A program made the translations under genes and the position numbers. 64,000 bases of DNA, from contig OZ237776.1 in assembly GCA_965178125.1 (NCBI GenBank), positions 186,001-250,000 on the forward strand, written 5' to 3'. Source of the DNA: Bilabrum cf. latius (Eukaryota). The stretch's first letter is position 1, and the number at the start of each line of letters is the position of its first letter. Positions 43,918-64,000 of this stretch are shown here, piece after piece. The notes under the pieces are model-generated. The model was not told where the DNA came from. It was given only the letters and a program-made list of their open reading frames with translations, and did no database searches.

Positions 43918-46900
43918 ATGTTGTTTGTTTCCAAAGGAGAGTTAGTACTCTACTTTGGAACCATTGCAGTTTCGTTGACACTCCTTGGTATCTCGCTCGT
44001 CGACGGGATTCGGTGTTCAGACGATCAGCCTGAATGCTCTAGTCCGGCAGAGTTCTCCATCTCAAGTGTTCAAACTGCGACAGCATTTGGCATGCATGCC
44101 TGCTTTGCCATTGCTGGCTGCATGTTGGAACCGAACCCAAGGACCCTGCTGTACCTTTCCACCGTCGCCGCCACTGATGCAACTGTGAGTTCAAGACTGG
44201 AGCGAGGGACTTCTGCGCCCTTCAACTTGCATCCCAAAAAACGAACATGTTTTGTACGCCCTCGCTACGCAGATGTTTGCGGCGTCGGTCTTTTTAGAGC
44301 TGCATCGTAGCGGTACGGTTCAGAGTTTTGGTGTTCCAGTGAATCGGTAGCGGATGCTTTTTGGTGCGGCATCAGCCTTGGCAGTAGTAAACGATAGCTA
44401 GCTGATATTCCAAATGCGGTATAACCGAATGCTTGCAACCGCTGCATGGCTAGCCGTCCTGTGTGGTGTAGTCATAGCCAGCTTGTACGTCTCGGCACTG
44501 GCTGGAAACATTGCTCTTGTGTTCATTCAATGGACTTCCTAGGCCGCTTTTACAGTAGTATTGGTATCAGAGGTACTTCGTGGCAGCGTCGACCGCGCTT
44601 TATCTTGCTGCTTCGATTGTAACCTGGAGCAGCAGACGACCCCGGAGCGTAGGCAGAATGCCCCGGGACCTCCCGGCATGGACAATAAGCCTGGCAGTGG
44701 GAGTGGTCGATTAAAGGGGAATGATCCGTACCCAAGTTTGTTGACGAGCGATACTCGCCAGCTTCTCCTCCTGGATGACCGGCCTCTGCAACCACACAGG
44801 ATGCCCCAAAGCAGCCCCGCAATTGATGGAGAGGAGGACAAGCCTGAGGAGAGGAGCGGGTGCCGACGCGTCACTCCCATCAGCGCCCTAGCCCTCGTTG
44901 CACTCGCAGGCGGTCTTTCATACTCGATCGAGTTCTACGGGCGCCGATTCCTCGGCCTCTCCGTCGAGTCGGGCGCCTACGTCCTCCTCGTGTCGGATGT
45001 GCTAATCGTGCTCTTGCGGTATGTCACCTCAATCGCGATCCTGCACAACGACCTGGTTCTCGTGGCCAAGCAGGCTGCCGAGTCGCAGAAGTGGAAGCGA
45101 GAAGCCGCCGATGCCCGCCTCAGCACCATCCAGCAGTTCACCAGGTACATCTTCCACGAGGCCCGGGTGCCTCTTCAGGCGGTGTCACTGTCGGTGCAGG
45201 AGCTGCAGGAGAGCCTCAAGGAGATCAACCAAGAGGCGATTGAGCTCAAACGAATCGCCAAAGAACACCGCAGAGAACAGCGAAGGGAGCGGAATCGGGC
45301 GACCGACCTCACCGAGGCACAGGAGCAGGAGCAGGAGCAGGAGCTTGAGCAAACAGGAGCAGGGGCAAACACAGGATGGGCAAGACCAGGAGCAAACGCT
45401 GCATCTGCACAAGCGATTGAATCGCCGGAGATGTCGGAAAGTGCCATTCGGCGAGAAATCGCCGAGCTCCTGTAGGAGGTGACCGAGGCACGTGACGTGC
45501 TCCGGTCCCAGCAGGAAGGGTGCAAGGGACTGCAGTGCATCTTCGACGACGTGCTCGAGGCCCAGCGCATCGAGCAGGGCAGGCTCAGGCTAAGGGACGA
45601 GGTGGTGGACGTGGCGCAGGTGCTGCAAGACATCGTGTCCACGTTCCGACGTACAGCTGAGAAGCGAGGCGTGAATCTTCGGGCGGATGCTGCGCAAGAC
45701 GTGCCTGGCCACATCCGCGGGGACCCCGTGCGAATCAAGCAGGTGCTTGCCAATTTGGTGTCGAACGCGCTCAAGTTTACTCCCAAAGGTGGGGCTGTCC
45801 ATGTCCACGGCAGGATATCAGAGGTCCAGACCATGTGGGCAGCCACAGGTGCAGGTGCAATCACAGATGCGGGAACAGATGCGGGAATGGGTGGCTCTGC
45901 ATTAGCGGACGTTGTTGTTGGAAGGGATATGGCCGGTAAATAGGACTAGCATGGGCGTGATGGAGCTGACAATGACGTCATTGTGCTCGCTCATCCAGGT
46001 GATGCAGGTGCAGACACGGCCGGTATGGGACCAGCCGGTGAGGCTGATGCACGTGTAGAAGCCGAAGGCAGTATAGGCACTAGCCGGGGACTGCTGGGAC
46101 CCGCGCGTGAAGCATCGCCTGCATTTCCCAAGCCCAATCTCAAGCCCTCACCCCAATCGAGGGCATCTGTGGGAACTGCGCACTCGTCATACCGCAGCAC
46201 CTCCAAGATAGTCCCAGTCATCGGTTCCGGAGGGTCGTCTGTCGCTAGCTCAGTCTCCTCTTCATAGAAAGGCAAGACCAGCAGAACTGCTTGGGCGGGC
46301 CGCCAGGCAGCCGATGCCACTGCTGACTTGGCTGCCGGCAGTCCACACGGCAAGGCACGCACTGCAGACCGAGTCCACTCTGCTGCCCACAGCGGCGATC
46401 TCCTCGGAGGTGCCCTGCGAGAAATATCGCCCCATGGTAAAGGTAAAAGTGGGGGACGATATCGGTCAAGCAGCACTGGCAACGGCGGCGTTGTCTCGCC
46501 CGCAGGCCAAGCACCGGTGCCTGCCGCTGACGACACCGGTGGTGAGTCGGAGGGATAGACGGCCATCGCAGCGGGCACCGAGGTGGCCTTCCGGCTCGTC
46601 TTTGAGGTAACCGACACCGGCTGCGGCATTTCACAAGACGATATCAACCAGCTCTTCACGCCCTACAAGCAGACCAGGCACGGCGTGGAATACACGGGCT
46701 CTTCCTCCGGTCTGGGCTTGTACATCTCCCGCGGGATCGCTCGTCAGATGGGCGGCGATCTGGTGGCATCGAGCGAGGGAGAGGGCAAGGGCAGCGTGTT
46801 CACGTTCGAGTTCGAGGCGATGCCTGCCCCCGCACCACGATCGAGTCGGCTGAGCGCCTCCTCTGACGGTTCGTTCCTGACGGACGCTGGTCTCTCTGGC

Positions 46901-47806
46901 TCGCTGGTCTTCTCCGTACCGGCGGGGGATGCAAGCAAGGTGGACTTGAATGAAGGCTCGGCAGTGTTCCCAGATGCTGTTGGGACCCAGCTGGGTACAA
47001 GCACTACTGCGGGGCTGTTTCCCGGCTTGGATCCTGCGGCTGGAAGCGGAAGCAGGGCGAGAGGTTCGACTGCCAGTCACGGGGGTACCGTCAGTCACGC
47101 GCGGGATGATGTTAGCGGTGCAGCTCGCGGTGGTGCAACCATTTGCGATACCAACAAGCTCGTCGCTTCAACCCTGGATTCGGAAGTCCAAGACAACGAC
47201 ACAGAGACCTCCCCTTCAGCAGCAGGTGCGGATGCAGCGGCAGCATCCGGGACTACAAAGCGGAGGAGGGTCGTAAAACGGAGCAGGAAGGGAGGCGCGA
47301 GTGGTCCCGATGAACGTGTGCTAGGAACCATGCATGCCGATGGTGGTGAGCCTGGTGGGGGGGCGGGTGCATCGCACGGTGGTGCACCAGCCCCCTCGCC
47401 CCTTGATGCCCTCAAGGCGTGGTGCCTCATCGTGGACGACGTGCCCACCAACAGGAAGCTGCTCGCCAGGGGCATGCGCAGGCTCGGATACACCGTGCAC
47501 CAGGCCAAGGACGGGCAGAAGGCAGTTGAGGCGTGCCGGGCCCGGGCCATGGAGGCGGGGCCGGGGTTGGAGTGCCTGGGCCTGATCACGATGGACAAGT
47601 CGATGCCAGTGATGGACGGCGTGGAGGCGACGCGGTCGATCCGTGTTGAATTCGGGTCTCGGTTTGTGATTGTTGGCCTGACGGGGGATGCTTTGGGCGA
47701 GGACTTGGAGGCGTTCAGGGCCGAGGGGTTGGACGCGGTGCTGGGCAAGCCTGCTGGGGCGAACGAAGTCCAGCAGAAAGTCAATCGCGTGAACAACCCA
47801 GAATGA
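43918..47806 (+). CDS. Hybrid histidine kinase 5; intron 44185-44272
   Basis: 8 in-frame TAG (44348, 44399, 44540, 45473, 45941, 45947, 46265, 46556); ends at TGA. All HK and REC motifs are present. Confidence 0.88.
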
Positions 47807-47929
47807 ATTTATGTGAGTATGCGAACTTAGTTTCTCTGCCATCCCAAGTTCTTGTGGAGACCATGGGAATTGCGGAACCTCGTGAAGCGCGCGGCGACCA
47901 GGCGCAATCATTAGAAAATCTACGAAGCT

Positions 47930-48790
47930 ATGGCCGAGGCTTTGACTAGTACCGTTATGCCGACGTAGCTTCTCTCATTCTTGTTTGTATTTACTCTGCT
48001 TATATCTTTCGGCAGCATCTTGGTTGTCCTTGCCATTCTCGATGCAATCAACTGCACGACTCACGAGACGACGTGCGTGTCTGAACATGAGATTCCTTTG
48101 CGGTGGTTGCGACAAGTAGTTGCGTCATCAATTTTCGTGCATGCTTGCGTGTATGCATACGGGATGTACGCATGGCAAGGCGCCGTAGTGAAGTGTTTCT
48201 TTGGAGCCGCGGTGTGCATTGATGTTGCGGTAAGTCTTTACTCAGAGCAAGATGTTTAGGGGTGATTTTCAAAACCTTACCTTCATCATTCCAATGTATT
48301 TTGGTTCAATTCATTGGCGCAGCTTGGAACGACAATGACCCTCATGGGATATGCAGTGTCGGGCGTCAACACGGTGCTCGGACAGCCATATCGAGTACAG
48401 AGATGGCTTCACAACACGGCGTCTGTCCTTGCTGTGTTCAATGATGCTTCCATCGGAGTCTAGGTTCGAAATGATCGTTTCGTTTACGCAGCGTTGGCAT
48501 GGATGGGTCTTGCGCTTTGCGTGCTGCTTTTCGCGTACGTGCGCAGCGATGCTGCACAACTGGCCAACGTGTTTGTCACGCTGCCCTTGCAAGGCTTCAT
48601 GAGCATATTGATATTATTAGAGGTATTTCGCGGGCCAATAGATGCCTCTGTCAACTCGTGCCTCCTGAATATGTGCTGGTGGCCCCAGTGGCTCAAGCAA
48701 ACCCAACCAGTTGCTGGCGAGCCTTAGCCGACAGACAGCGTGGCTTCCCCTGCCCGTATTGGCGATGGCGCTACGAAGCGAGAATCTGTT
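47930..48790 (+). pseudogene. 5' part of hybrid histidine kinase 6 (intron 48230-48322), interrupted by the virophage
   Basis: Sensor helices align with HK1-5 (VQRWLHNTASVLAVFND; PLQGFMSILILLEVFRGPID). Homology ends at the G10 run where composition switches to AT-rich. Confidence 0.8.
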
Positions 48791-49255
48791 GGGGGGGGGG
48801 ACAACAGGTGGTGGTAGGTACACCAAGCGTTGAGGACGAGGGCTACGCTACGCTCGCCCCTCCTTTAAAGGCATATTTAGCAACTCAAGTGTTTTCCCTA
48901 TAAACCTAGATGATTTCCCAAGGGGTTCCCCAAGAACCCCTATAGAACCCCTCTATGTACCCATTTTCAGATATAAAATTTACTCCTACGAAGTAGGGGT
49001 AAATTGAAGAATTCTAATCTTTATCCCCCTTATAAACTCTAACAGCAAAGACAGAGATGTTTTAGTAAAGTAGGAAAAAATGAAGAAATTAACCAAGTGT
49101 CAAAAACCTCTCTGTGTTTGCTGTAGGAACGAAAGGATGAATTCCCAAGAGACCAAGAGACCAACCGAGGATTTTCCCAAGAGAACAAGGTATTTTATCA
49201 AGAGAACAAGGTAGTTACACCAAGCGACAAACCGATGAACCGACCGATGAACCGA

Positions 49256-49326
49256 CCAAGGATTTCCCAAGGATTTCCCAAGGATTTCCCAAGGATTTCC
49301 CAAGGATTTCCCAAGGATTTCCCAAG
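49256..49326. repeat. 11-bp tandem repeat ccaaggatttc, about 6 copies, in the putative left terminal repeat
   Basis: Directly visible; related (t)ttcccaag words are scattered over 48913-49915. Confidence 0.9.
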
Positions 49327-49408
49327 CGACTAAATTGTTCTCCGAAGCAACCAAACCGATTACCCAAGAGATGATACATTATAAGGAAAACGAAAACAAA
49401 TTATAATT

Positions 49409-49904
49409 GTATTTTAAGTCCCTTTGGAAAAGTCCCCCAAAAATTGAGAGATTTGACAGGTCAATTATAAGAGACTTAGAAAGAATAAATATATTTTCCA
49501 ATTAAAATTAAATGTTATAATTCCAATGATGCCACCATAAAAATTAAAAGGAAAACGAAAACGTATTTTAAGTCCCTTTCGAAAAGTCCCCAAAAAACTT
49601 GTCAATTTTACAGGTCAATTATAAGAGACTTAGAAAAAATAAATTAAGTTCCCAAGATGCTCGGGCTTTGCCCTCCGCTCTTTTGATATCTTTTTCAAAG
49701 ATTAAAATTAAATGTTGTAATTCCTATGATGCCACCATAAAAATTAAAAGGAAAATAAAAAACAAATTATAATTGTTTTCCAATTAAAAACACAAAAATT
49801 GATTGAAAAATTTTGACAATATAGGATACAAAGAAATATTAAAATTAATTTTCCAAGATGCTCGGGCTTTGCCCTCCGCTCTTTTGATATCTTTTTCAAA
49901 GATT
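49409..49904. repeat. Interleaved 50-90 bp direct repeats in the non-coding left end
   Basis: Pairs: 49409-49490 vs 49563-49645; 49501-49555 vs 49701-49755; 49652-49703 vs 49853-49904. Confidence 0.85.
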
Positions 49905-49953
49905 GGATTTCCCAAGAGATGATAATTTAAGCCATTCTATATCACTATAGTAA

Positions 49954-50067
49954 ATGAACCCATTTTTAAAGGAGTTGATGATAGAGCATATTGTCAAGCA
50001 AATTAATCCACGTATTTGGAAAAAATTACACGAAAAACTAAAGGAATACAAGAAGCTCGGGCTTTGA
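49954..50067 (+). CDS. 37-aa virophage hypothetical peptide
   Basis: ATG is directly preceded by CTATAGTAA like other genes of the element; ends at TGA. Confidence 0.45.
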   Translation: MNPFLKELMIEHIVKQINPRIWKKLHEKLKEYKKLGL

Positions 50068-50098
50068 TATAAGTAGAAGACTATACTATAAAGTACTT

Positions 50099-50383
50099 AT
50101 GAAGCCACATACCTACGATTTTGAAAAGGTTGTTGAAAATTTTCAATTTAAAGCACCCTCAAGACGCAAGAATAAGAAGTATGATGTTTTTGACGAAAAT
50201 GATGAATATATTACATCGTTTGGTGATAGGCGGTATTAGCAATTTTACGATAGAATAGGGTATTACAGCCATTTAAATCATTTAGATACGGACCGCCAAT
50301 TTAGATACTTCAAACGACACGGTATCGAAGTAAAACCAAGAACCCCAAAGTTCTTCTCACATTTTTACCTTTGGAGTTCATAA
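50099..50383 (+). CDS. 94-aa small conserved viral protein (DUF5754-like, from recall)
   Basis: SRRKNKKYDV...SFGDRRY[TAG]QFYD...H.D...RH...FFSHFYLW; one TAG at 50237; ends at TAA. Confidence 0.75.
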
Positions 50384-50443
50384 ATGACACCATTTTAACA
50401 GCAAGAAGCATCAGAATTTTATGGGGACTTAATATCATCTTTA

Positions 50444-50755
50444 TTATTTAGATACATTACCGATTATCTCTTTGATTTCGTCTTTGTTAAGAATTCGTGT
50501 TTTCGCCTATTTTACAAGATACTCTACTTGCTCTTCAAATATAATGTTTTCCACCATATTTGTCAGTGATTGAATTTGTTCATGATACTTCTCAGGTTCC
50601 TTTTCAAATAATGTTATATTATAAAATAAACTCTAAATTTCCTTAATTGCTGTTTCTGATAGAACACCTTGTTTGACGTTTAAATTACATATTTTGTCTT
50701 CTATTTTATTTCTTAATCTCATACATTTATCTTGGTCTTTTGAAGTCCAACGCAT
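50444..50755 (-). CDS. 103-aa virophage hypothetical helical protein
   Basis: MRWTSKDQDK...; two TAG; ends at TAA; TATAGAA upstream. Confidence 0.65.
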
Positions 50756-50797
50756 TATTTCTATAAAGTGATATAATAATATTTAATGTATGCCCGT

Positions 50798-51352
50798 TTA
50801 TATTTCCTGTATATCATTAAGATGATACGTCAATAAATACACTAATTCATCAGGATTTAATGTATGTTTCTTACAAACCTTATCCACCCACTTTTTATAC
50901 TAATTAGCGTTTTTCGCTCTATTCCAAAGACGAACTATACAATGTCTCCCGCAGGTTGCTATATCCATTCCATCCGCCTAAAACTAATATGGGTTATAGT
51001 CAATCTTATACGGAGAATGATACATTAAATAAATTAACTCAGGGTCTTCATAAAAACGTTTCCGCACGCTTTCACTCATTGTCTGCTATTGCCTATCAGG
51101 ACGAATTCCATAACTGTCAAAGAAGTATATTGTTTTATTACGCTTAAATAAGCACACCCAGTGTCCAGAGTTTATTTCTTCTTGATACAAAATAATGCAA
51201 CAATTACAACGGGAAAACAATCCATCAATACTATTGTACTATCCTAATTCGGTATAAGGTACAATATTTACCGACGTAGGAAGAAATCCTTTAATATTTG
51301 GTGGATTTTGGAGGAGAACACGAATATCACTATCGCTAAGAGCATAATCCAT
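50798..51352 (-). CDS. Virophage maturation cysteine protease (adenain/Ulp1 clan CE), 184 aa
   Basis: SGHWVCL (H64), YFFDSYG (D79), YNPY[TAG]F[TAG] (Q125), ATCGRHC (C134); 5 TAG; ends at TAA. Confidence 0.93.
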
Positions 51353-51526
51353 AGATTTATTATATACATATATATTGGGGGAGATGAATTCTCTTAACCA
51401 CTATTTAAGTGTAGAAGTATTTCTACAAAATCCATTTAGGAATTTGTGGAAAACAAATCGGTATTAAAAAGTCCCCAAGAAAAATTGATACATTTTCCCC
51501 AACGATACACAGACACAATTAAAAAA

Positions 51527-51913
51527 ATGTCAGCAGGACGACCAAGGAAATATGGTAATTGGAAAAGGTATATGGAAGTATATAAAGATTATTTAATTGC
51601 AAGGAAAGCATATTTTGACCTTAAGAAGTAGTATAATCTACTCAAAACCAAAAAGGAAGAAACTGAGGAGCACATAGAATTATTGCTTGAGATAGGACAA
51701 CAGATTTGTCCGGTGAATGGAGGTAAAATATATACTTAGTGGAAATTGTTGTCAAGTGATGTAAGAGTATTGCGGAATTCTATTAATCCAAAACGAAGGA
51801 GTTACAAACATAGGTTCTAGAGGAAATGGAAAAGTCCCCACAAAATCTAGAAACTGTTTAAGTCATTCAAAATAAGTTTTCAACAAAAAGACAAAACACT
51901 TTAGAAAATATAA
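51527..51913 (+). CDS. 128-aa basic protein with N-terminal AT-hook-like GRPRK
   Basis: MSAGRPRKYG...; 5 TAG; ends at TAA 51911; AAAATTGA at 51481. Confidence 0.65.
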
Positions 51914-51936
51914 AAACATATAGTAAATACACTAAA

Positions 51937-52839
51937 ATGGCATATTTTTCTTGGAAGGAAACTACAAAATCATCACCTATCGCATATGACACTCACGGAA
52001 AACGTATTTTATACACAGCGGAAAACACAGACAACCAATTTGGAGATGATAGTGTTACATTCTAGGATTTTCAAGTATCATCACTTACAGGGAAACGATT
52101 TCCGCAGAGGAAAATGGATTTATTAGCACGACACTTAATCAAACAGGTCGAACCCCTAGACGAAGACATCAAATACTTGTATGAAAAAGCATAGGAAAAG
52201 AAACATAAAGAGATTACATTAAAATAGGGTGAATTCCAATCATTACCAAATTTAAACGGAAGAGAGGTAATATATATCACCGCACCATCAGGTGCTGGGA
52301 AGTCTACTTGGGTTTCCAAGTATGCTAAGAAGTATCATAGAATGTTTCCAAACAGGAGAATTATTTTATTTTCACGAGTATAGTAGGATAAAGTCTTAGA
52401 TGAAGTGAAAGGACTGAAAAGGATTATTTTAAATGAGGAACTGGTGGAGAACCCGATTGATATTCATTAGGAATTAAGGGACGCCTTAGTAATCTTGGAT
52501 GATATTGATACAATCAAAGATAAGAAGTTAAGGGAAGCCCTCAATCATTTACAGGATGAAATATTATAGGTTGGTCGCCACTCAAATACTTCAGTATTAA
52601 TCACAAGTCATTTATCCACCAACTATAAAAGTACCCGTATTATTCTTGCGGAAAGTCATAAGTTCGTTATATTCCCTTAGTGTTCTTCCGCACATTCTCT
52701 AAGGTATTTACTAAAAAATTATATTGGACTTGAGAAACAAGAAATCTCTAAAGTCCTAAAAATGCCTTCTCGGTGGGTTTGTGTTCATAGGAATTACCCG
52801 AGGTATTTAATTGGAGAAAGGTAGGCTTACCTTCTATAA
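51937..52839 (+). CDS. FtsK-HerA family genome-packaging ATPase, 300 aa
   Basis: IYITAPSGAGKST (Walker A), LVILDDID (Walker B), GRH..TSVLITSH, SRWV...NYP; 9 TAG; ends at TAA. Confidence 0.95.
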
Positions 52840-52868
52840 TTTTGGTCAAACTTGTTATAAAAGTTTCT

Positions 52869-53108
52869 TTAAATAATATTCTATTCTCTTATATACCGAC
52901 TTGCTTGAGGTAAACTCATACCAGTCTACTACATCACCATTTTTACAAGTTTATTGCGGCGTTTCATTTTGGCGCTCACTTTCCGCTTAGGCTTACTACG
53001 GCCTTTCCCAACTTTAATATGATGGTTTTTAACTCTATTTAAAGCGTCTTGTTCTTTCTATAGCGCGAGTTGTTTGGTTCTCTATATAATCCACTTATCA
53101 ATATCCAT
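52869..53108 (-). CDS. 79-aa basic putative core/DNA-condensing protein
   Basis: RNKLVKMVMQQTGMSLPQASRYIRE resembles a short helical motif I recall from virophage core-like proteins; 5 TAG; ends at TAA. Confidence 0.7.
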
Positions 53109-53171
53109 TATACTATACACAAACACTTTTTTTTATTTTTTGGTCAAGCTTTTTATAAAAGCTTATAGTAA

Positions 53172-54434
53172 ATGAAAACTGCTAAAGTGAATGCTCTTAT
53201 TCAGCAAGCCCTAGAGAGGGAACTGGACAATGCTAAAATGTTAGATTTACAGGCAAGGGACGACGTAGATTTAGAAACAGAATATAGTGATTTTATAAGG
53301 AAAAGGGCAAAAATTGAACGATTAAAAGAAAGTGGAAGGTATGGAACTCCAGCGTAGAGAAAATAGGCAGACCAAAGCAACGAGGAAATCATATCTAAAT
53401 CAATATCTGGTATAATGAAAGGTATTATTGAGGGAAAGAACGTGTAGCCAGCCGTGAAAGCGTTAAAGGATTTTGTTGGTAATATCAATATGTCTCCACA
53501 AATGAAGCAACAACTCGCCCGTCAATACGTTAACATAGAGAGGTTTCAAAGGAAAGGATACGAAGGACTGCAGAGAGTTCCAGCTGAGGATAGAAAACAA
53601 CTCTTAGAATTAGGAAAAGTTATTTAGGACGCATCCGGAAAAAGAATACCGTAGGGAATGTTGGGAATTGATTTCCAGCAAACACCTATGAGAACACCAA
53701 CAACTAACACATTTCAAGAAGATTTTGGAGAATTAGAAAATTCTACAGAGAGTTTAAACAGGAGATAGAGAGGTCAAATTTTACGACGAGCACGCGAAAG
53801 GATTTCCAAAGGACAACCACTTTCATAGCAACAAAGTAGGATATTGGAAGAAGAATAGGGACAATAGTTCTCACGGAGAACTGATGGACAACAATCTTTA
53901 CTTCAACATTTTCCAGAACAGAGTGGGTCATCCAAAAGTAAAACTAGCGAAGTGGATGATTTATTAAGGAGCATACAAGGAGAAGAAAGGGGGCAAGCTA
54001 TTGACGACGACGACACAACAACAGAAAAAGTCACCTCAGTTGCTTGGAAAAGTCCCGCAAGACCACCCGGGTTTTGGGAAGGTTCGCCGATGTTTAAAAA
54101 AAGAGAGGGAAAACGATACAGACCCGAGGGAGGTCCAACGGAAAGGCCGAAAATGGACTTGGGAAAACGGGCAAGCAAACCTGTAGAACGTTTTACCGGA
54201 TTTTCTCCACCGCACGGAATAGCACAACCTGGTTCTATGTCTGTAAAAGAAAGTAGAATACCGATAGGAAAACCAAGAGGGAAAAAGAAGAAGAAGACCG
54301 GAAAAGGATTACGAGGTGGAAAAAGGATTATCTATGATACAGCAATGAATGTAGCCAAGAAAGTAAAAGGAACCACTAAAGATATTCATCATTAGGTTGC
54401 TATGGAACTATTACATCTTTTAGGAAAAGATTGA
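53172..54434 (+). CDS. 420-aa hypothetical virophage protein with basic C-terminus
   Basis: ORF pieces 53172-53357 and 53952-54395 join through many TAGs; ends at TGA; TATAGTAA precedes the ATG. Confidence 0.8.
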
Positions 54435-54474
54435 CGCAACCTGATAAAAATTATTTCTGTGGATATACTATAAA

Positions 54475-54966
54475 ATGTCAGTTTCAAATCTTCTATCTAA
54501 GAACAGTCTAGACCTTATGTCTCAAACTATTACGTGTAATGTTGTGAGTAGCGACGCAATTAAAGTGTCCGCAATTACTAACTCTACGGGAGCAGTCATA
54601 GGCAATCCAAGTATTGAGTTCACGGACGGAGAACCATATATGGCGTGGGGAGACACAGTTTTACGATTTGGGAAAAACGGAGCGTCTGCTGGTTGTCAGT
54701 TCAGTATGAGCGAAGAAGGAGAAAGATGCGATATTTCACTAGTTGGTTCATTCAAGACTTCTCAAGAGGGTGTCGTTGGGCTGAGTGAGGTTGCTGGAGC
54801 AACGCTTGCTGATGCTTCTGTCCCAATTAATACGTCACCAGAGCGAAAGTTCAAGGGGGCTTTAGTGTATAATGGAAGCGACAACGATGTCTATGTGGCG
54901 ATTGGCAGTTCTTCTACATCTAGTTGGAAATCCTTAGTGTCAGGTTCACTTATTACACCATCTTAA
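54475..54966 (+). CDS. 163-aa putative fibre/virion protein
   Basis: Uninterrupted ORF with MSVSNLL N-terminus, beta-rich, directly upstream of the penton; ends at TAA. Confidence 0.7.
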   Translation: MSVSNLLSKNSLDLMSQTITCNVVSSDAIKVSAITNSTGAVIGNPSIEFTDGEPYMAWGDTVLRFGKNGASAGCQFSMSEEGERCDISLVGSFKTSQEGVVGLSEVAGATLADASVPINTSPERKFKGALVYNGSDNDVYVAIGSSSTSSWKSLVSGSLITPS

Positions 54967-55022
54967 TTATACTTTAGAAAAGTAATCAAACCCACCCCAT
55001 AATTATAAGCCTCTATAGTAAA

Positions 55023-56132
55023 ATGAGTTCTCCAGACCGATTTTACATTACCGCAAACATACGAAATAACGAAGATACTTTCCAACCAGCGACCTATAGC
55101 GAAACCCGCAAGTAGCCATTATTAGATAAGGATGTTGGTGATTATACGATGTCAGTGTTCAGGTTTTCCATAAGCACCAATTCAATACCTTTATGGGTTC
55201 CACACATAGAAACCGATAAAGTGAAAAATCCATCTTCAAATCCTAATCAAACGGTGTATAGAATAAGCATTACAGATGAAAGTGGAGTACAATTATGGAC
55301 GGAAAGTATTATATGGAGACCCTAGTTAACAGGGGAAAACCAACCATCTTTTTCCAATCCTATGTAGTTTGTTCCTTATTATTATATGTATTCCGTGTAG
55401 CATTTTGTTGATTTATTCAACGAAACCATATAGAATGCTTTATCAGCGGATATTACATCAGTTCCGGTTTTACTCTTTAAAGATGGAAAGTTCAGTTTAG
55501 TAGCAAATCCCGATTACGACGAGGAAAACTCAGGACAAAAATTTAAATTAGTGTTGAATGAAGCCCTTAACGAACTGATGACGGGTTTTCCTATGGAACG
55601 AATGGATATCCAAGATGACGACTTATACGCCAGTATTCTATTCAAAACCCTAGGAACCAATGTTTTATTCGATGATGGCTCTTCTGTTGGAAAATATGAA
55701 CCTTAGGCATACTTCGAGGGAAACCCAACGGGAGACTACAGATTAATGATGACCTAGGAACGAGGGAGTTTAGTGTAGTTTTAGATTTTTCGCGGAATAG
55801 TTTTCACATCTTCAAGTCTTCCAGTGAGGAGTGAGGCAATATCCTAGAAATCCGCCTATGGACAATCCACAAATACAGATTAGAATTCAGGTTCAGGGAC
55901 CGAGAGTTTATTAGTGGATATGGACTGTGTATTAGATGACACTGAAACAGTTAATTAGTAGGTTCTTCAATACCAGCCCCATATTCTCCACGAAATTGAT
56001 TTTTTAGATACACATTCAGTAGATAGGATTTAGTTTAATCTTTATTGGAAAGATAATTATTCAAATCTAAGACCTCTTTATTTACGCCACGGAAGTGTGA
56101 GTGTGAAGTTTTTAATTTAGAAACGGAAGTGA
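55023..56132 (+). CDS. Minor capsid protein (penton), 369 aa
   Basis: ETR.QP, YTMSVFRF, IPLWVP, IWRPQ, YYYMYSVQHF, MTQE, IVFTSSSLPV, LYWKD...KFL; only TAG interruptions; ends at TGA. Confidence 0.92.
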
Positions 56133-56237
56133 AATTAGTTTTGTATTACTTTTATGAAGAAACGAGTTTGCGTTCTTTTCTAAAGAACTGAGTGATAGAA
56201 TTTTATTCGTTGTATATAATATACAAGGAAAACAAAA

Positions 56238-58004
56238 ATGTCATTGAATACCTTTGCCCTTCAGCCAGTCAAAGTATCACCCGCAACACTAGATGTACAA
56301 CCGAAGCCGTATGAAGTTCAAGAAGGTTATGAGAACCGGACTTTCCGTAAATATAACCCCTCCGGGTCTGCCGGAAACTACAACAGCGGGGTCAACTGGA
56401 ATATTAGTATGCCTTCAGGTGTAGGTTTGTGCCGTCGTGCCTATGTCTCGTGCCGATTTTCTATCACCTTTTCCGTGAATAATCAAACCGCAGGTGGTCT
56501 AGCACCCTTTAGACCAGATTACGATGCTCCACGCTCCTATCCACTTAATCGCTCCATCGCAACATAGACAGTTGGCATTAATAACCTTCGCTATACCCAG
56601 AACAACGGCGAACTAATGGACGCTCTGTCCCATTTACTAGATGATGATGTCCACCGTGTGAATTGCCTTGATAGTGTGTATAGACGCGATAATGTGCCTT
56701 CATACGCGATGATGAGTTAGTCTACGAATAACGCTCTTGCTTCGTATGAGGACGTGCTTTAGGACCAACCAGCCCGAGGAAGTGGATTTTACAATTTGTA
56801 TCAAATGGATAATACTGATGTACCCGCAGGTCAAACTCAAAATCGTGTTCTTGTTTTTGAATGCACTGAGGCGGTATTATGTCCACCTTTCCACTACGAA
56901 AGTAAATAGGAACAAACGGCTATATACGGAATTCAAACACTCTCCTTAAATATTAATTGGTCTCAACTGAGTAGAACCGTGTGGTCTCGTATTCCACAAT
57001 AGGGCTTAACTGCTACCATTTAGTCGGTAGATGTCCAAGAACCAGTCCTATACCTTGAATAGATTACACCTAAAACAGGATTTGTGCTTCCTAAATAGGT
57101 CTCGTATGATATTTTTGAGATGACTTCGTATACCCAAAGTCATAGTCCAACAATTGCCGCAGGTACTACAGCAACTCTTTACAATAACAATATTAAGCTT
57201 AGTAATTCAGTTCCAAGTCGTTTATTTGTGTTTGCCCGTCGCTCACCTACAACCCTTTCAGTAGATTAGGGAAACACATTCATGGCAATTGATGGAATTA
57301 GTATAGAGATGAATAACCATAGTGGATTACTCGCCGACGCATCGCCACAGCAGTTATGGGACTTATCCAGAAGCAACGGACTTGAATAGCAATATAATGA
57401 ATGGGCTATGCGTAAATTCGGGGATAGGGTGCTATCAGGTGGTCTGTTATGTATTGACCCCGCCAAGGACTTAAGCTTAGATGTGGATTAGACAAATGGT
57501 AGCAACGGGTCTAACCAACTGTCTATAACCCTACGAGTGAAGAATAATGATGATGTGGGCTACGATAATGTGTAGTGTGTTGTGATTGGATTATACGAAG
57601 GAGTATTAAATTTGATTGATGGGTCTAAGTTCGAGTATTAGCAGGGTGTCATCTCACGGGCAGATGTTCTTTCCGCCTCTAAATTACCCGTAGTATATGA
57701 AAGTCAATTAAGCGGACTACACGGTAGGGGTCTTGGTAAAAAGATTAGACACGCCTTAAAAAAGTTCGCACACAAAACCGCTGATTGGGTAAAGAAAGGC
57801 AATCTCAAAAAAGTATTAAAGGATGGTAAGTAGGTATTTGACACCGCTAAAATGGTGGGTGAAATGGCTGGAATGGGTCGCCAAAGGAAACCCCGAAAAA
57901 CTACCAAGAAAGGCAAGGGCTTAACAGGTGCCAAGTTAGGCTCGGGCTTAACAGGTGGGAAATCTTTATCTCGTAACCAACTACTCGCAATGTTGTAGCA
58001 GTGA
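56238..58004 (+). CDS. Virophage major capsid protein (double jelly-roll), 588 aa
   Basis: SYPL...INN, NNALASY, ARG, YGIQTL, ISIEMNNHSGLL...QLW..S..NG; Gly-rich C-terminal extension; about 15 in-frame TAG; ends at TGA. Confidence 0.95.
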
Positions 58005-58059
58005 ATATGAAAAGGGTAAACCAATAAATATTTGTCTTGGTATATAGTATATCAAAACA

Positions 58060-58677
58060 ATGTCAGTATCAACTGCTGTAATGGTTGCTGGGACTTTAGC
58101 CCCTTTAGCTTATACAGGAAGCAAGTGTCTGTATTCTTGGTGGACGAAAGACGGAACTTAGAAACAGAAATCGTGCGTGGTTGTTCCAAAAGGAAGCGGT
58201 AAAACTACGTTATGTCGTTCCCTAGAAGCGGTGGATAAGGATACGCTAATTATTGATTTAGACGAGTGTGTAAATGCTCAAATTTCAGGACAGGAAAAGC
58301 AAAAGATGGAGAAAATGTTGGTTGACGGTGATGAAAGTACCCACCGCCTCTTTTATTATTCCCAATCAAGATTAGTGTATGAAAAAATTAAAGCGGATTG
58401 GCTCACGAAGAAATCCAGACGTTTAATTGTTATGGTTGGTTCGTTGGAATTAGCGAAAGATTTATTTAAGGAAAGTTCAATTTTTGTGTGTGTGCCTTCT
58501 CACAGTCTTTTTGAGGAAATCCGTGAAGGGAAAAAATCGGGGGACTTATTGTCTGTGGAACGCTCAAGAACGAATTTAATCGCTGGATTACATTAGAGTT
58601 AGTACTGTGTCTATTCATCCTTTTAGCAACTGGAGGAATTCGTCCGGAAAACCTTCGGTCTTGGAAGTCGTCTATGA
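58060..58677 (+). CDS. 205-aa P-loop NTPase/kinase-like protein
   Basis: VVVPKGSGKTT, IIDLDE; hydrophobic N-terminus; 4 TAG; ends at TGA. Confidence 0.8.
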
Positions 58678-58702
58678 GTTTTTTAATACAAGCCTATACT
58701 AA

Positions 58703-59908
58703 ATGGATAGTTTTTATACACTTAGTGGCGGAAAAATGAATTCTGGTTTTGTTAAGACGTACATTAGTGTGAAAGAACCAAAGAGTAAAACAACAAGGAC
58801 TTGGAGAAGTGAATATCCTTATTCTAAAGAAGCTCTTGAAAAAGCAATTAAGTTTGAAGATGGTCTGGGAACAAAAGGAAAACCCAAAAAGAAATCCAAG
58901 AAGAAATCCACACAATCCAACACACTTCATAAATATTTAAAAGATGGTTTGCGAAGCACCCCCTCTCGGCGCAGTTAGCTGGCGCAACAGCTTAAAGGTG
59001 GAGTAGTGTATGGAAATACAAACGAAGTCCAGAGAAATCTTCAACAATACGGGGATAGAACAATCATTGCTATGAAAGTAATTAGAACCCCTATTAGTGG
59101 TGCGATTAATCGGTTACTCAACTGGATAACCTTGGGAAAAATGAAAAAACTAAAAAATAAACACGGATATAATGATTTCTTCCATTTAGCCTTAGAATTG
59201 AACCTTGGAGGTGGAAAAAAGATTTATCTTGAGAAGAATGAGAGGGTTAATTTGTCCCCACGATTTTCCACCAACAAGAAAACTCAAACTATGGAAGTAA
59301 ATATTAATGGAAAACCTCAGAAAACAGTAAGGGAATTATTTGAGACCACTTTACAGAAAATTGGAGAATACAACTTTTATCAGTACCGTGCTTTTAGTCT
59401 GAACTGCCAAAAATTTATCCAAGATGTTCTGCGCACAAATGGGTTTTTGACACCACCCTTAAACCAATTTATTATGTAGGACGTAGAGAGTATTGCTAAG
59501 AGTGTATCGGGATTTACTAAGAGAGTGGCTAATGCTGCTACTGACGTCGCTGGGTATTTTTCCAAATGGTTCGGGAGAGGTTTAGATGATTTACCGGAAG
59601 ATGTCAGAAACGCCTTAATGAAAAATTAGAAAAAGCATAAGTAGAACACAGAAAGGGATTTTGGAACAGACTTTAAGGAAGGTTGGGATTTAGCAACTAA
59701 AACAGTTGGAAAACCAATTATGAAAGAAATCCATTCGCATACGAATGACCCAGTATCGGGTATGTATCTGGAATTATTTGGAGGTCAATGTCAGTGTGAA
59801 ACCAAACGTTCAAGAGTTATGAAAATGGCGTCCATTTTAAGAGGAAAAGGAATATCCAAGAAGAATGCCCTAAAACAGGCTTGGAAAATATTTGCCTACG
59901 ATACTTAA
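58703..59908 (+). CDS. 401-aa conserved virophage protein (Sputnik V21-like from recall; permuted NlpC/P60-like H...NCQ motif)
   Basis: RTPI...LN..TLG, FFHL, LEKNERVN, Y.AFSLNCQKFI, FIM[TAG]D; three ORF pieces joined by TAG; ends at TAA. Confidence 0.8.
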
Positions 59909-59944
59909 ATCTAACTCTATAGTATAATACTATAGAATACAAAA

Positions 59945-60217
59945 ATGACACTCAGTCATTCAGAAAGAAAAGAACAGGATAAGCTGTATGCCCGTGAATA
60001 CTACCGGAAAAATAAGGGAAAACTTGGCGAGTAGATACAATGCTCGTGTGGTGGCGTATATAAGAAGTACAATAAATCACATCATTGTAGAACCAAAAAA
60101 CACCTTGATTGGCTTAAAAAAGAGGAAGACACAAAAAGGGAACAAATTAACATAATGGATGAACTTGATAGTTTGCGACAGGAAATTGAGAAGCTTAAGG
60201 AAAAACAGACTATTTAA
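59945..60217 (+). CDS. 90-aa Zn-ribbon protein
   Basis: YY..NK...CSCGG.Y...NKSHH.RTKKH followed by a coiled coil; one TAG; ends at TAA. Confidence 0.85.
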
Positions 60218-60218
60218 T

Positions 60219-62060
60219 TCAATCTTTTCTAAAAAGTTTCTTCTTACTGTGAATAATTTGACATTCACCTGATTGCTCCAACTTCATACCCCCAAGGTTC
60301 GTTGATAACTTTAGAGGTAATTCTTTCTCACTAATGAAACCATCCGTATTGACATAGTGAATGTTTTCAAGATATGGCTCAATCATTTTGGACAATTTAC
60401 TTCGTCCAAGTCCAGTCAGAAAGGGGCCCATTCTTGCGTAGGCTGTTTTGTAATCGTACTCTTCGTCATATAGTATACCCGATACAAGTCGTCCAGATGC
60501 TTTAGGATACGCGTTCTTTAATTGTCTAAAATTCATACAATCACCATCTCGGAGTGTTTTTGTGATTGTGTTTTTCTAACATAGAGAACCCCAAATATTA
60601 TTTAGTATCTCCTTCGCACACTTCAATCCCTATTTTTTATAACCGTACAATCGCTCAATCATCGTTTTGAACAGTCCATTTGCCTTCACCCTTGTTGTCT
60701 CATCGTAAAGTAAAGCGTTGGCTTCACCGTCTTCAATCAGAGACACCTAAGCGCCCGTCTCAATCGCTCGGTTAATGTCATATTGGGTATAATAATTGTT
60801 TTTTCTTTTTTGTACTAATTTAGAATTGAGATTTTCAATATGTACCCTAAAAATGCCGTACGGATAGAACCCACTGGATGGTACTTTAAATTGTACGAAC
60901 TTACCCCTTCTAACCGGAAATGTAAATGTACCCTTCATAATACTTGGATAAAATGAGTTAATATCGTACTGGTATGCGTTTTTCAATGTAGTATTCTTGT
61001 TTGCCCAATTCAATCCACCACCTGATGCTCTTGAAATCCATAGTGCTTCAACTTGGTCAATCGGGTCGGCAGGGTAAAGTTTGGAAAACTTACTGAAATA
61101 CGACTTTACAAATAGGGATGTTCTAAACATAAATCGTGATAAATCCATATATCCACCCGTCTCCTTCGCTAATGCCCTTACATTTTTCATCCGTTCTTCG
61201 TGTTTTGTTCTTAGTTCTTCCTTGGACTTGACTTCAAAGATGAATTTATCCTTGGAAACTGATGTAATGCCTTCTGATTGATACTCACGGTCTCCATCAA
61301 ATAGTAAATAAGAATTCTCGGATTGATACAAGCGGGTAATTAGCGTACACGGTTCTTTAGACGGCGGTGTAAATAATTCTTTCTAACTAATGGGGGGAAC
61401 ATACTTGTAATGCCCATTTGTTAATGAAACAGTTAGAAGACGGTCAAAATGAGTTTTTCCAGATGTGTATTCAAAGTCGCCTACAACATGAATGCGTACT
61501 TGAAGTTCGTCTTCTATCTCTGGTATTCTTCTGTAATCAACGGGGTCATCACGTCCAATTTTCAAGAGTTCTTTGAGGTCGGACTTCGACAATCTTTTAA
61601 TAGTAGTTTTCCATTTGCCTTTTGCGCTCTTTACATTTACCTTACGACCAACTGAAAAAGGAAAAGCCTGTTTTATAGCGTTATATAAACAATCGTTATG
61701 TTCGTCAGCACCGCCTTCTGGTTCTGGCTTTCTAATAAGCAGTAGTTCAAAAGAATTCAATTTTCTATATTCGTCGTCATCGTCGTCTTCGTAGCCCGCC
61801 CATAAACTATCTTGATTTTCTAAATCATCTGTAGTAATCCAAGTGCTTCGTGTTCGCCAACCTGTATCTTGGTAATTGATATTCACCTTAAATTTAAAGT
61901 CATCAAACGGATTTTCACCACCATCGTCGTAATCACGAATAAATTCCAAGACATTTTTTACGGTGATAAGGTCCTCGCTCTCAAATCGCATACTCCATAT
62001 TGGTTTCCCATTAAGACGCAATTTGGTTCTTTGGGGTTCCATAAAATCGATTTCGGGCAT
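60219..62060 (-). CDS. Protein-primed family B DNA polymerase, 613 aa, with N-terminal TP-like and vOTU-like region
   Basis: YDINSFYP (motif A), K.ILNNIWG (B), YVNTDG (C); NDCLYNAI...NGHY; three pieces joined by TAG; ends at TGA. Confidence 0.92.
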
Positions 62061-62079
62061 TCTATAGTATCTAATATAT

Positions 62080-62132
62080 TATAGAATACGATAATTATTC
62101 TTAAGGTACGAACTCACTCACTTCTCAATTTT
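62080..62132 (-). promoter_or_regulatory. Putative promoter of pPolB (AAAATTGA plus a block shared with the helicase upstream region)
   Basis: Near-identical to 63791-63841. Confidence 0.65.
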
Positions 62133-63776
62133 ACAGAGGAATTTGGAAAGTTTTCCTTTTTTGCTTGGAGGGTTTTCTTTTATCCATTTTTGAATAGCGA
62201 TGCTATTCTCAACACTCAGTTGTTTCTGGATTTTCTTATGGACTTTTTCCGTCGGTGTAATCTCCTTTTCCAATTCCATCTATTCAATCGTTTCCTACTG
62301 CTATGCGACTTGTTTCTGTAGTTCTCTAATCTATTCTCGAAGAACATCCACCTCGGATTTTGCTTTTTCCATCTCAGCAGAATGACGAAGTGCCTAAAAC
62401 TTAGATTGGAAGCCTTTTAGTAAGTCTGCGTGTTTCACATTAAATTCTTGTTTTCTCTATTTGTTCATCGTTGAATGAACACCCACCTCTGACAATAGTG
62501 TTTTAATCATAGGTGTACCAAGGTTCTTCACTCTACCGTTCAGTTCCTACTTTAGATAATTGCGGAATTCCAAGACTGTCATTTTAAAATCTCTGCCTTC
62601 GTCCAGCCACTCTTCTTTTAGAATTTTTAAAACCGGATGTGCGCCATCAAGAATTCCTTTGTAAAAATTCTTTGATTTTGGTGCGAATTGTCCTGTAAAG
62701 TCTGGTGATTTATCATAGATTTCAACCAATAACATATAAAATGCCTTAGCCACTTCTGGATTTTCTGTAAAACGTTTTAGTGTTGTAAAGTATTCTTTGT
62801 CTCCTTTCTTTGATGTATTCACATCCAAAACACAATATCTACGGATTTCCTCGGTGATTTTGATTGGACTATCATTCGTATCAATAATTAGATTGAATGT
62901 ATTCGGACGACTTTCGGATTTGACAAACTTCTCATTACAGGAAAAGTGTTTTTCCGTAATAAGATTTCTTAGTGTTGCCTACATGGCGTCCCAAATAGTT
63001 GGCGAGGCTTTTGGAATTTCATTAAAATTGACTAATAGTTTCCCGTCCAGAATTGAGTTGAAGGCGTCGGGTTGAAGCATCTTGTGTGTAAGCGTCTATA
63101 GTGTAAGGGTATATCCGAGTAGTTTTCTCATAAGGAAGGTAATAATCATCGATTTACCAGTTCCTTGTGGAGATTTCAAATATAGTGCTGTTCCCAACTT
63201 CTTTCCGCCCACAATAACGTGAGCCAACCATTTCATCACAAAATCACACTATTCTTTGTCTTCTGAAGTCCACACCTTCTGGATATGTTCATAAATCATA
63301 GTCGCGCCTGCTTTTGCGTCTTCGGATAAATCCTCTATGTTTCCACAGTTTTCCCGTGTAAGTATAGGTGAACCCATAACGTTAATTGTTTGATTGTCGT
63401 AATCCACGGTAGGTGAATTAAATTTTCTTACAATCGTAAATACGTCGGTATTCTCATTTAAGAACCAGTCTCGTGCTGACCAAGTCTTTACTCTTTTGTT
63501 GCCCACAATCGCGTAAATACAGTGTCCCCCAATCAGGTAATTTTCAGTAATATTTTTATTCGTAAGGAACTACCAGACTGGTTTCTGGGGTTCGTCATCA
63601 CTTATGTTATTCCGATTTAATTCAGATGCTATTAGAAAATACACCCCGCCACCTTGCTCGTGGGTGCGGTAGAAGTATTGTCTAAGGTATTGAATACATT
63701 CCTCTTGTTTTCCGGCATTACATAGGTCCATAAGGCTTTTTGACGAATACGCTTTAGTCGGCAGAGTGAATGACAT
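62118..63776 (-). CDS. Superfamily 3 (D5-like) helicase, 552 aa, C-terminal coiled coil
   Basis: LYLKSPQGTGKS (Walker A), LLVNFNE (B), IIDTN (C), RRY; only TAG interruptions; ends at TGA. Confidence 0.92.
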
Positions 63777-63790
63777 TTTTGTTGTTGTAC

Positions 63791-63841
63791 TATAGAATAC
63801 GAAAATAATCCTTAAGGTACGATACGGGGCATCTCAATTTT
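63791..63841 (-). promoter_or_regulatory. Putative promoter of the SF3 helicase (AAAATTGA plus shared block)
   Basis: Near-identical to 62080-62132. Confidence 0.65.
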
Positions 63842-64000
63842 CTATATCCCACTCCAAAATTAAATTAGGAGCAATTTCTTGGATTTTATTCTTTGGTTCC
63901 CACGTCCAATGTTCTGGTTCTGGAAAATCTTTCCATTCGATTTGATACTCTGTTTCGTTCTCGGATTTTATCTTTTTTGGGAGAAAGATTGTCTGAGCAT
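63834..64000 (-). CDS. 3' end of a chromodomain-containing gene, probably the rve integrase (partial)
   Basis: EYQIEWKDFPEPEHWTWEPKNKI matches the chromodomain pattern Y.IKW...TWEP..NI. The mavirus integrase carries a C-terminal chromodomain, but the catalytic domain is outside the window. Confidence 0.7.
   Translation of the reverse strand, partial: AQTIFLPKKIKSENETEYQIEWKDFPEPEHWTWEPKNKIQEIAPNLILEWDIEN

Follow-up and report, generated by a model that had tools for sequence, protein, structure and literature searches.

The closest described counterparts of the locus reported here are the endogenous mavirus-like elements (EMALEs) of Cafeteria burkhardae, low-GC virophage DNA lodged in a GC-rich protist genome, whose insertions can disrupt genes (PMC8547959). 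The present locus lies in a 64,000-nucleotide stretch of DNA from Bilabrum cf. latius (contig OZ237776.1 of assembly GCA_965178125.1, positions 186,001 to 250,000), referred to below as the window, whose right-hand part is occupied by what its sequence identifies as a virophage-type element, virophages being small viruses parasitic on giant viruses. Like the EMALEs, it is low-GC DNA in a GC-rich genome, is apparently present in many copies, seems to disrupt a gene, encodes a protein-primed DNA polymerase (pPolB) and a primase-helicase, and carries promoter motifs that point to giant-virus helpers; a further likeness concerns the EMALE rve integrase (rve-INT) with its CHROMO domain (PMC8547959). 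It differs in that TAG is read as glutamine, in that its major capsid protein (MCP) is nearer to V20 of Sputnik and falls into a deep clade of its own, and in that the integrase body, the terminal inverted repeats (TIRs) and the target site duplications (TSDs) lie outside the window. Cafeteria itself presumably uses the standard code.

Sputnik, which we take to have replication and integration genes of its own, is a second point of reference. Among solved structures, its V20 and penton (minor virion protein) come closest to the capsid proteins of the element (PDB 3j26), but the element has a pPolB, its MCP has low identity to V20, and the code and the kind of host differ. Integrated viruses that follow a variant host code are described from Streblomastix strix, whose endogenous Maverick/Polinton-like viruses use the host TAA/TAG=Gln code, a feature interpreted as a sign of long association (PMC10120064). 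These too are capsid-encoding DNA viruses, but their MCPs are of the Maverick/Polinton type and of the Metamonada group, and both TAA and TAG are reassigned (PMC10120064), whereas the present element has a Sputnik-type MCP and only TAG is reassigned, TAA ending 9 of its 15 open reading frames (ORFs). PgVV-14T, from the Phaeocystis globosa virus system, is a polinton-like virus that acts as a virophage of a mimivirus-like helper, and this virophage-like virus, though of another virus group, has the early-promoter motif of that helper, AAAATTGA, upstream of replication genes including that of the DNA polymerase (bioRxiv 10.1101/2022.07.28.501842, PMC11464507). Endogenous virophages were already known, as was one case of variant-code integrated viruses of the polinton type (PMC10120064). 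No virophage with a variant code turned up in a full-text literature search; what came nearest was the mention of an ochre-suppressor tRNA in a single clade of metagenomic virophages (PMC6905037). What is new here, the results suggest, is the TAG-using capsid clade, the hints of many copies, the chromodomain tail at the window edge, and the presence of the AAAATTGA and TATA[GC]TA motifs; the virus lineage appears to be tied to hosts with a TAG=Gln code.

It is considered highly probable that at least 15.2 kb of the window is a virophage-type element carried in the nuclear genome of a eukaryote with GC-rich, intron-poor DNA, in which TAG means glutamine, and that this element belongs to a deep clade with TAG as a sense codon, combining a Sputnik-type capsid with a mavirus-like replication module. 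The first 48 kb, which are host DNA, have a GC content of 0.53-0.71 in 2-kb intervals, against 0.32-0.42 in everything beyond 48-50 kb; the low-GC element spans from about 48791 to 64000, where it runs off the window. Under the standard code it holds seven ATG-started ORFs of at least 100 aa, and a compact gene set emerges once TAG is translated as a residue (Table 1). The 15 ORFs of this set comprise 4289 codons with 91 in-frame TAG and not a single in-frame TAA or TGA. Nine of them end in TAA and six in TGA, but such ends are built into the definition of ORFs called with TAG as sense, and true gene ends at TAG are invisible to such calls. The actual signal is that TAA and TGA never occur in frame. 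A preliminary description of the stretch, made from its letters alone, had stated that almost every virophage gene is interrupted only by TAG, which these counts bear out. Its TAG counts for the ATPase (9), the MCP (15) and the protease (5) are exact, penton and pPolB having 15 and 4, as are the lengths it gave with TAG as Gln (ATPase 300, MCP 588, protease 184, penton 369 and pPolB 613 aa), and none of the nine genes common to the element and its metagenomic relative L002 contains a frameshift, just as had been claimed.

Comparison with metagenomic orthologs indicates that TAG is read as glutamine in the element. In 13 pairwise alignments the residues opposite TAG (n=124) are Gln in 33 cases, Lys in 14, Glu in 12 and Arg in 11. 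The preliminary description had named an alignment of TAG to random residues as grounds for its own rejection; Gln instead is far ahead. Where Gln is encoded by CAA or CAG, these alignments show a similar spread (Q 0.39, E 0.12, K 0.08). The log-likelihood of the meaning of TAG is -314.5 for Q, -380.0 for K and -384.2 for E, values derived from the substitution frequencies of these same alignments, some of which have a partner in common. TAG accounts for 91 of the 240 Gln-type codons of the element (38%), and 11 TAG positions are common to the window and L002. It is these closer orthologs that decide the matter. Among distant MCP homologs (24-32% identity) the signal is weak and mixed, Q being enriched 1.75-fold and E 2.37-fold at TAG positions, and the TAG at MCP residue 468 falls in a conserved-Q column (Q in 75 of 139 distant homologs).

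The MCP is a double jelly-roll capsid protein of the kind found in virophages (class Maveriviricetes). It matches Sputnik V20 (3j26_A) at 2.1e-30, in an alignment that covers residues 24-490 at low identity, and the mavirus MCP (6g45_A) at 7.7e-8. The capsid therefore does not group with mavirus in the manner of the EMALE type, and the term mavirus-like applies to the replication module only. Judged by its genes, the element is expected to work like an EMALE or mavirus provirophage whose capsid genes are not mavirus-like. Searches with virophage profiles, which had been proposed as a check, matched both MCP (PF22031, PF21915) and penton (PF21507). Among 1.84 billion representatives the MCP has 2273 matches at E<=1e-3, of which the closest are fragments of 133-270 aa from metagenome collections (a related cluster member, P0151, is also in NCBI), and the fragments P0003 and P0081 stop exactly before the TAG at residue 384 of the window MCP. 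The nearest capsids in the databases are thus fragments, which constitutes a blind spot and agrees with the earlier expectation that standard gene callers would miss such an element; three pattern-based scans of a viral contig collection, of limited sensitivity, likewise yielded no relative, and a tblastn search of a phage collection with the MCP gave no match.

A metagenome scan with a narrow MCP alignment recovered five loci, L001-L005. Two of them, L002 and L004, need TAG as a sense codon for their MCP, penton, ATPase, protease-like ORF and pPolB to reach full length, and the proteins of these two loci are 38-60% identical to those of the window element. In the MCP tree nine TAG-type rows (the window, L002, L003, L005 and the fragments P0001, P0002, P0003, P0069 and P0081), each of which needs TAG as sense or is a fragment ending at a TAG position, share a single branch of length 1.47 with SH-aLRT 100, and 45 further full-length virophage MCPs fall outside it, in a tree made by a quick method from which the other 105 listed matches were left out and in which named mavirus rows were not included. 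The tree that the preliminary description had called for hence places the element on a long branch of its own with other TAG-needing MCPs, and the TAG-using capsids form, on this sequence evidence, one deep and separate clade. Since all members need TAG as a sense codon, the clade would have evolved for a long time in hosts with a TAG=Gln code.

The replication module consists of pPolB and the primase-helicase. The former matches PF03175 at 3.2e-5 (23.5 bits, under the cut-off of 25.8) and phrog_1907 at 4.7e-13, and its 60% identical ortholog in L002 clears the Pfam cut-off at 2.1e-9; the latter matches PF19263 at 3.6e-15 and phrog_1156 at 4.6e-19. The ATPase, a candidate for the FtsK/HerA-type DNA-packaging ATPase of virophages, is a P-loop NTPase of typical size that matches PF13401 (AAA_22) at 6.8e-6 (26.9 bits, just under the cut-off of 27) and the PHROG terminase large subunit at 8.6e-4, with no PDB match under E 0.06; its ortholog in L002 is 60% identical and has three TAG positions in common with it. 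The protease-like ORF has no Pfam or PHROG match and its PDB matches are spurious sums over WD40 repeats, leaving the label without any family match, although a 55% identical ortholog adjoins the ATPase in L002 and L004. His, Asp, Gln and Cys motifs were seen in it by eye only, against what we take to be the adenain-like cysteine protease motif.

The host part of the window, its left 48.8 kb, contains long ORFs with short GT..AG introns. Their products include a 2491-aa protein whose kinase domain is CTR1-like, a JmjC protein and five tandem hybrid histidine kinases. In eight long host ORFs (734-2491 aa, 10673 codons) TAG occurs in frame 56 times, TAA and TGA never; TAG makes up 12% (56 of 463) of the Gln-type codons. 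In the CTR1-like kinase domain (PDB 3ppz, 7.4e-37) a TAG lies in the activation loop and is followed by about 110 well-aligned residues. The histidine kinase HK1 has TAG at residues 963 and 989, between its HATPase_c domain (695-767) and its receiver domain (1130-1245), and each of the five full paralogs carries 5-10 in-frame TAG. The host sequence firmly supports TAG as a sense codon, in keeping with the earlier statement that the flanking genes use the same code as the element. Its specific meaning is likely to be glutamine here too; in well-aligned paralog columns (21 comparisons) Q scores best at -53.8, followed by T at -59.7, and the entries of one column are Q, Q, Q, I, TAG, Q. Nuclear codes in which UAG specifies Gln and UAA is kept as a stop are a known type (NCBI table 15), and the host agrees with that type in having TAG as sense while TAA and TGA terminate.

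On its left the element interrupts HK6, a sixth paralog of the hybrid histidine kinases, near its start; HK6 aligns with the N-termini of the five full paralogs and has an upstream exon and a 93-nt GT..AG intron (48230-48322). The junction is crossed without mismatches by a contig of the sequencing run X1 (47688-48821) at a host-like depth of 41.7 and by a contig of X5, a run from another study (47933-48228 joined to 48322-48822). Since the GT..AG introns 44185-44272 and 48230-48322 are missing from its contigs, X5 represents spliced RNA. Both junction contigs extend 28-32 nt into the element and stop at the point at which a repeat would make a de Bruijn graph branch, and a further X5 contig (48794-49285) joins the element terminus to a different GC-rich flank. 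The branching together with the second flank places the terminus at 48791-48794 and implies at least two sites at which it meets host DNA. These data favour a genuine integration into a truncated histidine-kinase gene and give it good support, though not proof; the physical link to the host asserted in the preliminary description is thereby recovered from contigs of two studies, one of them spliced RNA. The non-coding terminal region is probably one arm of a TIR. Its second arm was sought by blastn in the host part, in the other sequence of the element and in L001-L005, where only chance-level matches of 18-31 nt were found.

Contigs of the element are 6-15 times deeper than host contigs (about 590-630 versus 42-51 in X1, 541-682 versus 64-110 in X4), contig depth not being the same as copy number, and in X1 the terminal region is about three times deeper than the element body. 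Copies appear to differ by whole-gene insertions and deletions, because variant contigs skip 50388-50827 (X1, X6) or 51450-51863 (X4, X6), each segment holding one small ORF, and similarity among many element contigs is no more than 90-99%. A family of many copies, or copies outside the chromosomes, would be one way to read these data. In X6, which comes from a different study and bears a different organism label, 61285-64000 is present with 18 differences in 2.7 kb and the host flank is missing, which means either that the host is a related one or that the element has moved recently. The RNA of X5 gives almost no cover on the element body and says nothing for or against its expression.

The window closes on the right with 165 nt whose minus strand encodes the 54-aa C-terminus of a chromodomain protein (PF00385, 2.9e-7, 30.7 bits against a cut-off of 25.1; HP1/CBX chromodomains in the PDB, 4.8e-4). 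This ORF adjoins the primase-helicase and pPolB genes in the same orientation and, by GC content and ORF calls, also lies in AT-rich DNA resembling the remainder of the element. No rve integrase core was found within the window, which only this tail enters from beyond 64000. Because the EMALE rve-INT carries a CHROMO domain and sits beside pPolB and the primase-helicase (PMC8547959), the ORF is by analogy probably the tail of an rve integrase located just outside the window.

Two promoter-like motifs recur in the element. TATA[GC]TA lies within 40 nt upstream of 10 of the 15 ORFs, compared with about 0.4 expected from density or shuffles, and occurs 25 times in total compared with 5.4 in simulations; by eye it also precedes 7 of 10 genes of L002. 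AAAATTGA is present 10 times, a number attained by 1 of 500 simulations, in which it averages 2.8. The motif is located 64 nt upstream of pPolB in the window and 63 nt upstream of pPolB in L002, as well as upstream of the helicase (57 nt) and of the 128-aa ORF (38 nt). Published work describes AAAATTGA as the early promoter core of mimivirus and mesomimiviruses (bioRxiv 10.1101/2022.07.28.501842, PMC11464507), which by analogy hints at a mimivirus-like virus as the helper. A 35-nt block is found twice, 89% alike, at 62077-62111 and 63788-63822, just upstream of the pPolB and helicase starts; together with the AAAATTGA copies further upstream it is probably a common regulatory region.

Alternatively, the insertion might be dead and decaying, and its TAG codons might be former CAG codons turned into nonsense by C-to-T change. 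The two codons are one transition apart, integrated copies with indel variants exist and no RNA cover of the element body is listed, but the 111 CAA codons could mutate in the same way to TAA, and not one in-frame TAA, nor any TGA, stands beside the 91 TAG; CAG-to-TAG hypermutation of a dead copy was excluded on this ground. The intact reading frames of the nine genes common to L002, the same pattern with shared TAG positions in independent metagenomic relatives and the in-frame TAG of host genes speak in the same direction, and decay is scarcely credible. It is also very improbable that TAG is a sense codon for another residue, such as Glu, Lys, Tyr or Leu, or is ambiguous between Gln and stop by context. 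Glu and Lys are the next commonest residues opposite TAG, some TAG columns of the distant MCPs are dominated by Tyr or Leu, and genes truly ending at TAG would escape the ORF calls. Against this, Q leads K by 65 and E by 70 log-likelihood units, the spread of residues opposite TAG resembles that of conventionally encoded Gln, and the column at MCP residue 468 is a conserved-Q one.

As regards the join, a free or episomal virophage in the culture could have been fused to the host in assembly through a repeat or the G-run at 48791-48800. The excess depth in X1 and X4 could come from replicating or packaged DNA, the junction lies inside the run of 10 G, the contigs that cross it reach only 28-32 nt into the element, and X6 has the element without the host flank. 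Such a chimera is nonetheless unlikely, as the same junction recurs free of mismatches in two studies, once in spliced RNA, the same terminus is joined at 48794 to another GC-rich flank of different sequence, and the flank in the window is a truncated gene, as an insertion would give. Somewhat less improbable, but still doubtful, is that the chromodomain ORF belongs to a separate retrotransposon beside or within a virophage that itself has no integrase. The Pfam-scanned ORFs of L002 (13 kb of its 15-kb contig) include no integrase, and retrotransposons inserting into endogenous virophages are reported (PMC8547959). The ORF, however, directly adjoins the helicase-pPolB module in the same orientation and is AT-rich like the element, and the EMALE rve-INT has both the domain and the gene neighbourhood (PMC8547959).

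Set against the reading of an integrated, code-adapted virophage are several points that concern its individual parts. The host case for Gln itself is thin, with 21 comparisons; a tRNA scan of the window and of L001-L005 found none, and TAG columns of the distant MCPs are in places dominated by other residues (Y at residue 275, G at 161, L at 110). The reach of the junction contigs is at or under the 31-letter bridging rule and there is no long read among the data, and the segment 48794-49285 could be a dispersed solo terminal repeat that bridges host and virophage in the assembly. The right end, the TIR, the TSD and the integrase body all lie outside the window, so that the words intact and potentially reactivatable in the preliminary description go further than the sequence does. 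The ATPase and the protease-like ORF are only tentatively placed in their families, and the link from motif to helper, as in the comparison with PgVV-14T, rests on analogy with published systems.

Taken as an integrated virophage, the element would have entered one of the hybrid histidine-kinase paralogs in its 5' part, presumably through the action of the chromodomain integrase, in a host whose code is predicted to assign TAG to glutamine while TAA and TGA remain stops. It may be largely silent until a helper giant virus transcribes it, via AAAATTGA for the replication genes and TATA[GC]TA for most others, and translation would then proceed on host ribosomes with a host tRNA-Gln(CUA). A broader proposal, to which slightly less than even weight is given, is that the deep virophage clade and, by implication, the mimivirus-like giant viruses that transcribe it have co-evolved with TAG=Gln eukaryotes, the code acting as a host-range barrier in a three-partner system, the copies serving as inducible defence and the locus providing the first physical host link. 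If this holds, many integrated copies would supply the host with an inducible defence against its giant virus, and a clade otherwise seen only in metagenomes would gain its first physical connection to a host. The host link and the code signature could be used for finding hosts and helper viruses in metagenomes, and the question arises whether giant viruses of TAG=Gln hosts likewise avoid the TAG stop.

Table 1 Features of the virophage-type element and its left flank, in window coordinates, with TAG translated as a residue
Feature	Position	Strand	In-frame TAG	Remarks
HK6, start of sixth hybrid histidine-kinase paralog	48335..48790	+		cut off by the element after ~150 codons
Left host/element junction	48791..48794	.		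inside a run of 10 G
Non-coding terminal region	48794..50098	.		tandem 11-mers GGATTTCCCAA at 49256-49332; 60-93-nt direct repeats (families D1-D5, D9, D11)
ORF 94 aa	50099..50383	+	1	no PHROG match
ORF 103 aa	50444..50755	-	2	missing from some copies (joint 50388>50827 in X1, X6)
Protease-like ORF 184 aa	50798..51352	-	5	assigned by position, size and motifs by eye
ORF 128 aa	51527..51913	+	5	AAAATTGA upstream; missing from some copies (joint 51450>51863 in X4, X6)
P-loop ATPase 300 aa	51937..52839	+	9	presumed packaging ATPase
ORF 79 aa	52869..53108	-	5	basic C-terminus, common to L002 134-aa ORF (by eye)
ORF 420 aa, Lys/Arg-rich	53172..54434	+	10	L002/L004 ortholog 38-39% identical; no credible family
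ORF 163 aa	54475..54966	+	0	only first ~20 residues resemble L002 381-aa protein
Penton (minor capsid) 369 aa	55023..56132	+	15	PF21507 3.2e-9; PDB 3j26_N 5.5e-13
Major capsid protein (MCP) 588 aa	56238..58004	+	15	PF22031 1.6e-27; PF21915 8.1e-25
P-loop protein 205 aa	58060..58677	+	4	weak PF13479 match (0.0025); L001/L002/L004 ortholog after MCP, 56% identical
ORF 401 aa	58703..59908	+	4	L001/L002/L004 ortholog 46% identical; no family (Pfam, PHROG)
ORF 90 aa	59945..60217	+	1	
pPolB (protein-primed polymerase) 613 aa	60219..62060	-	4	AAAATTGA upstream
Primase-helicase (DUF5906/VapE-like) 552 aa	62118..63776	-	11	AAAATTGA upstream
Chromodomain protein, C-terminal 54 aa	63834..63998	-		start lies beyond 64000

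The L002 counterpart of the 163-aa ORF is a 381-aa Gly-rich protein (L002 3057-4202, minus strand). The 163-aa protein is possibly a fibre or spike, the pair having the look of a swapped tip. The 401-aa ORF contains a conserved stretch, FSLNCQ(K/R)FI, in common with L002, which by eye recalls an NlpC/P60- or LRAT-type Cys motif, with no family match to back that resemblance. In pPolB the Pfam match covers residues 347-501 only, and the N-terminal third includes a DEHNDCL stretch that is conserved in the L002 ortholog and that by eye we take to be Cys-protease-like, in the manner of OTU proteins.

Two features of the host part stand apart from the element. The segment 8264-10455 is highly repetitive, with a GC content of 0.67 and a GC skew of -0.51; all three plus-strand frames are open, and one of them yields a proline-rich repeat of about 45 aa; no Pfam match was obtained. 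The histidine-kinase array at 22718-47806 is composed of five paralogs with HATPase_c and receiver domains, which are distributed over both strands and share long near-identical blocks.

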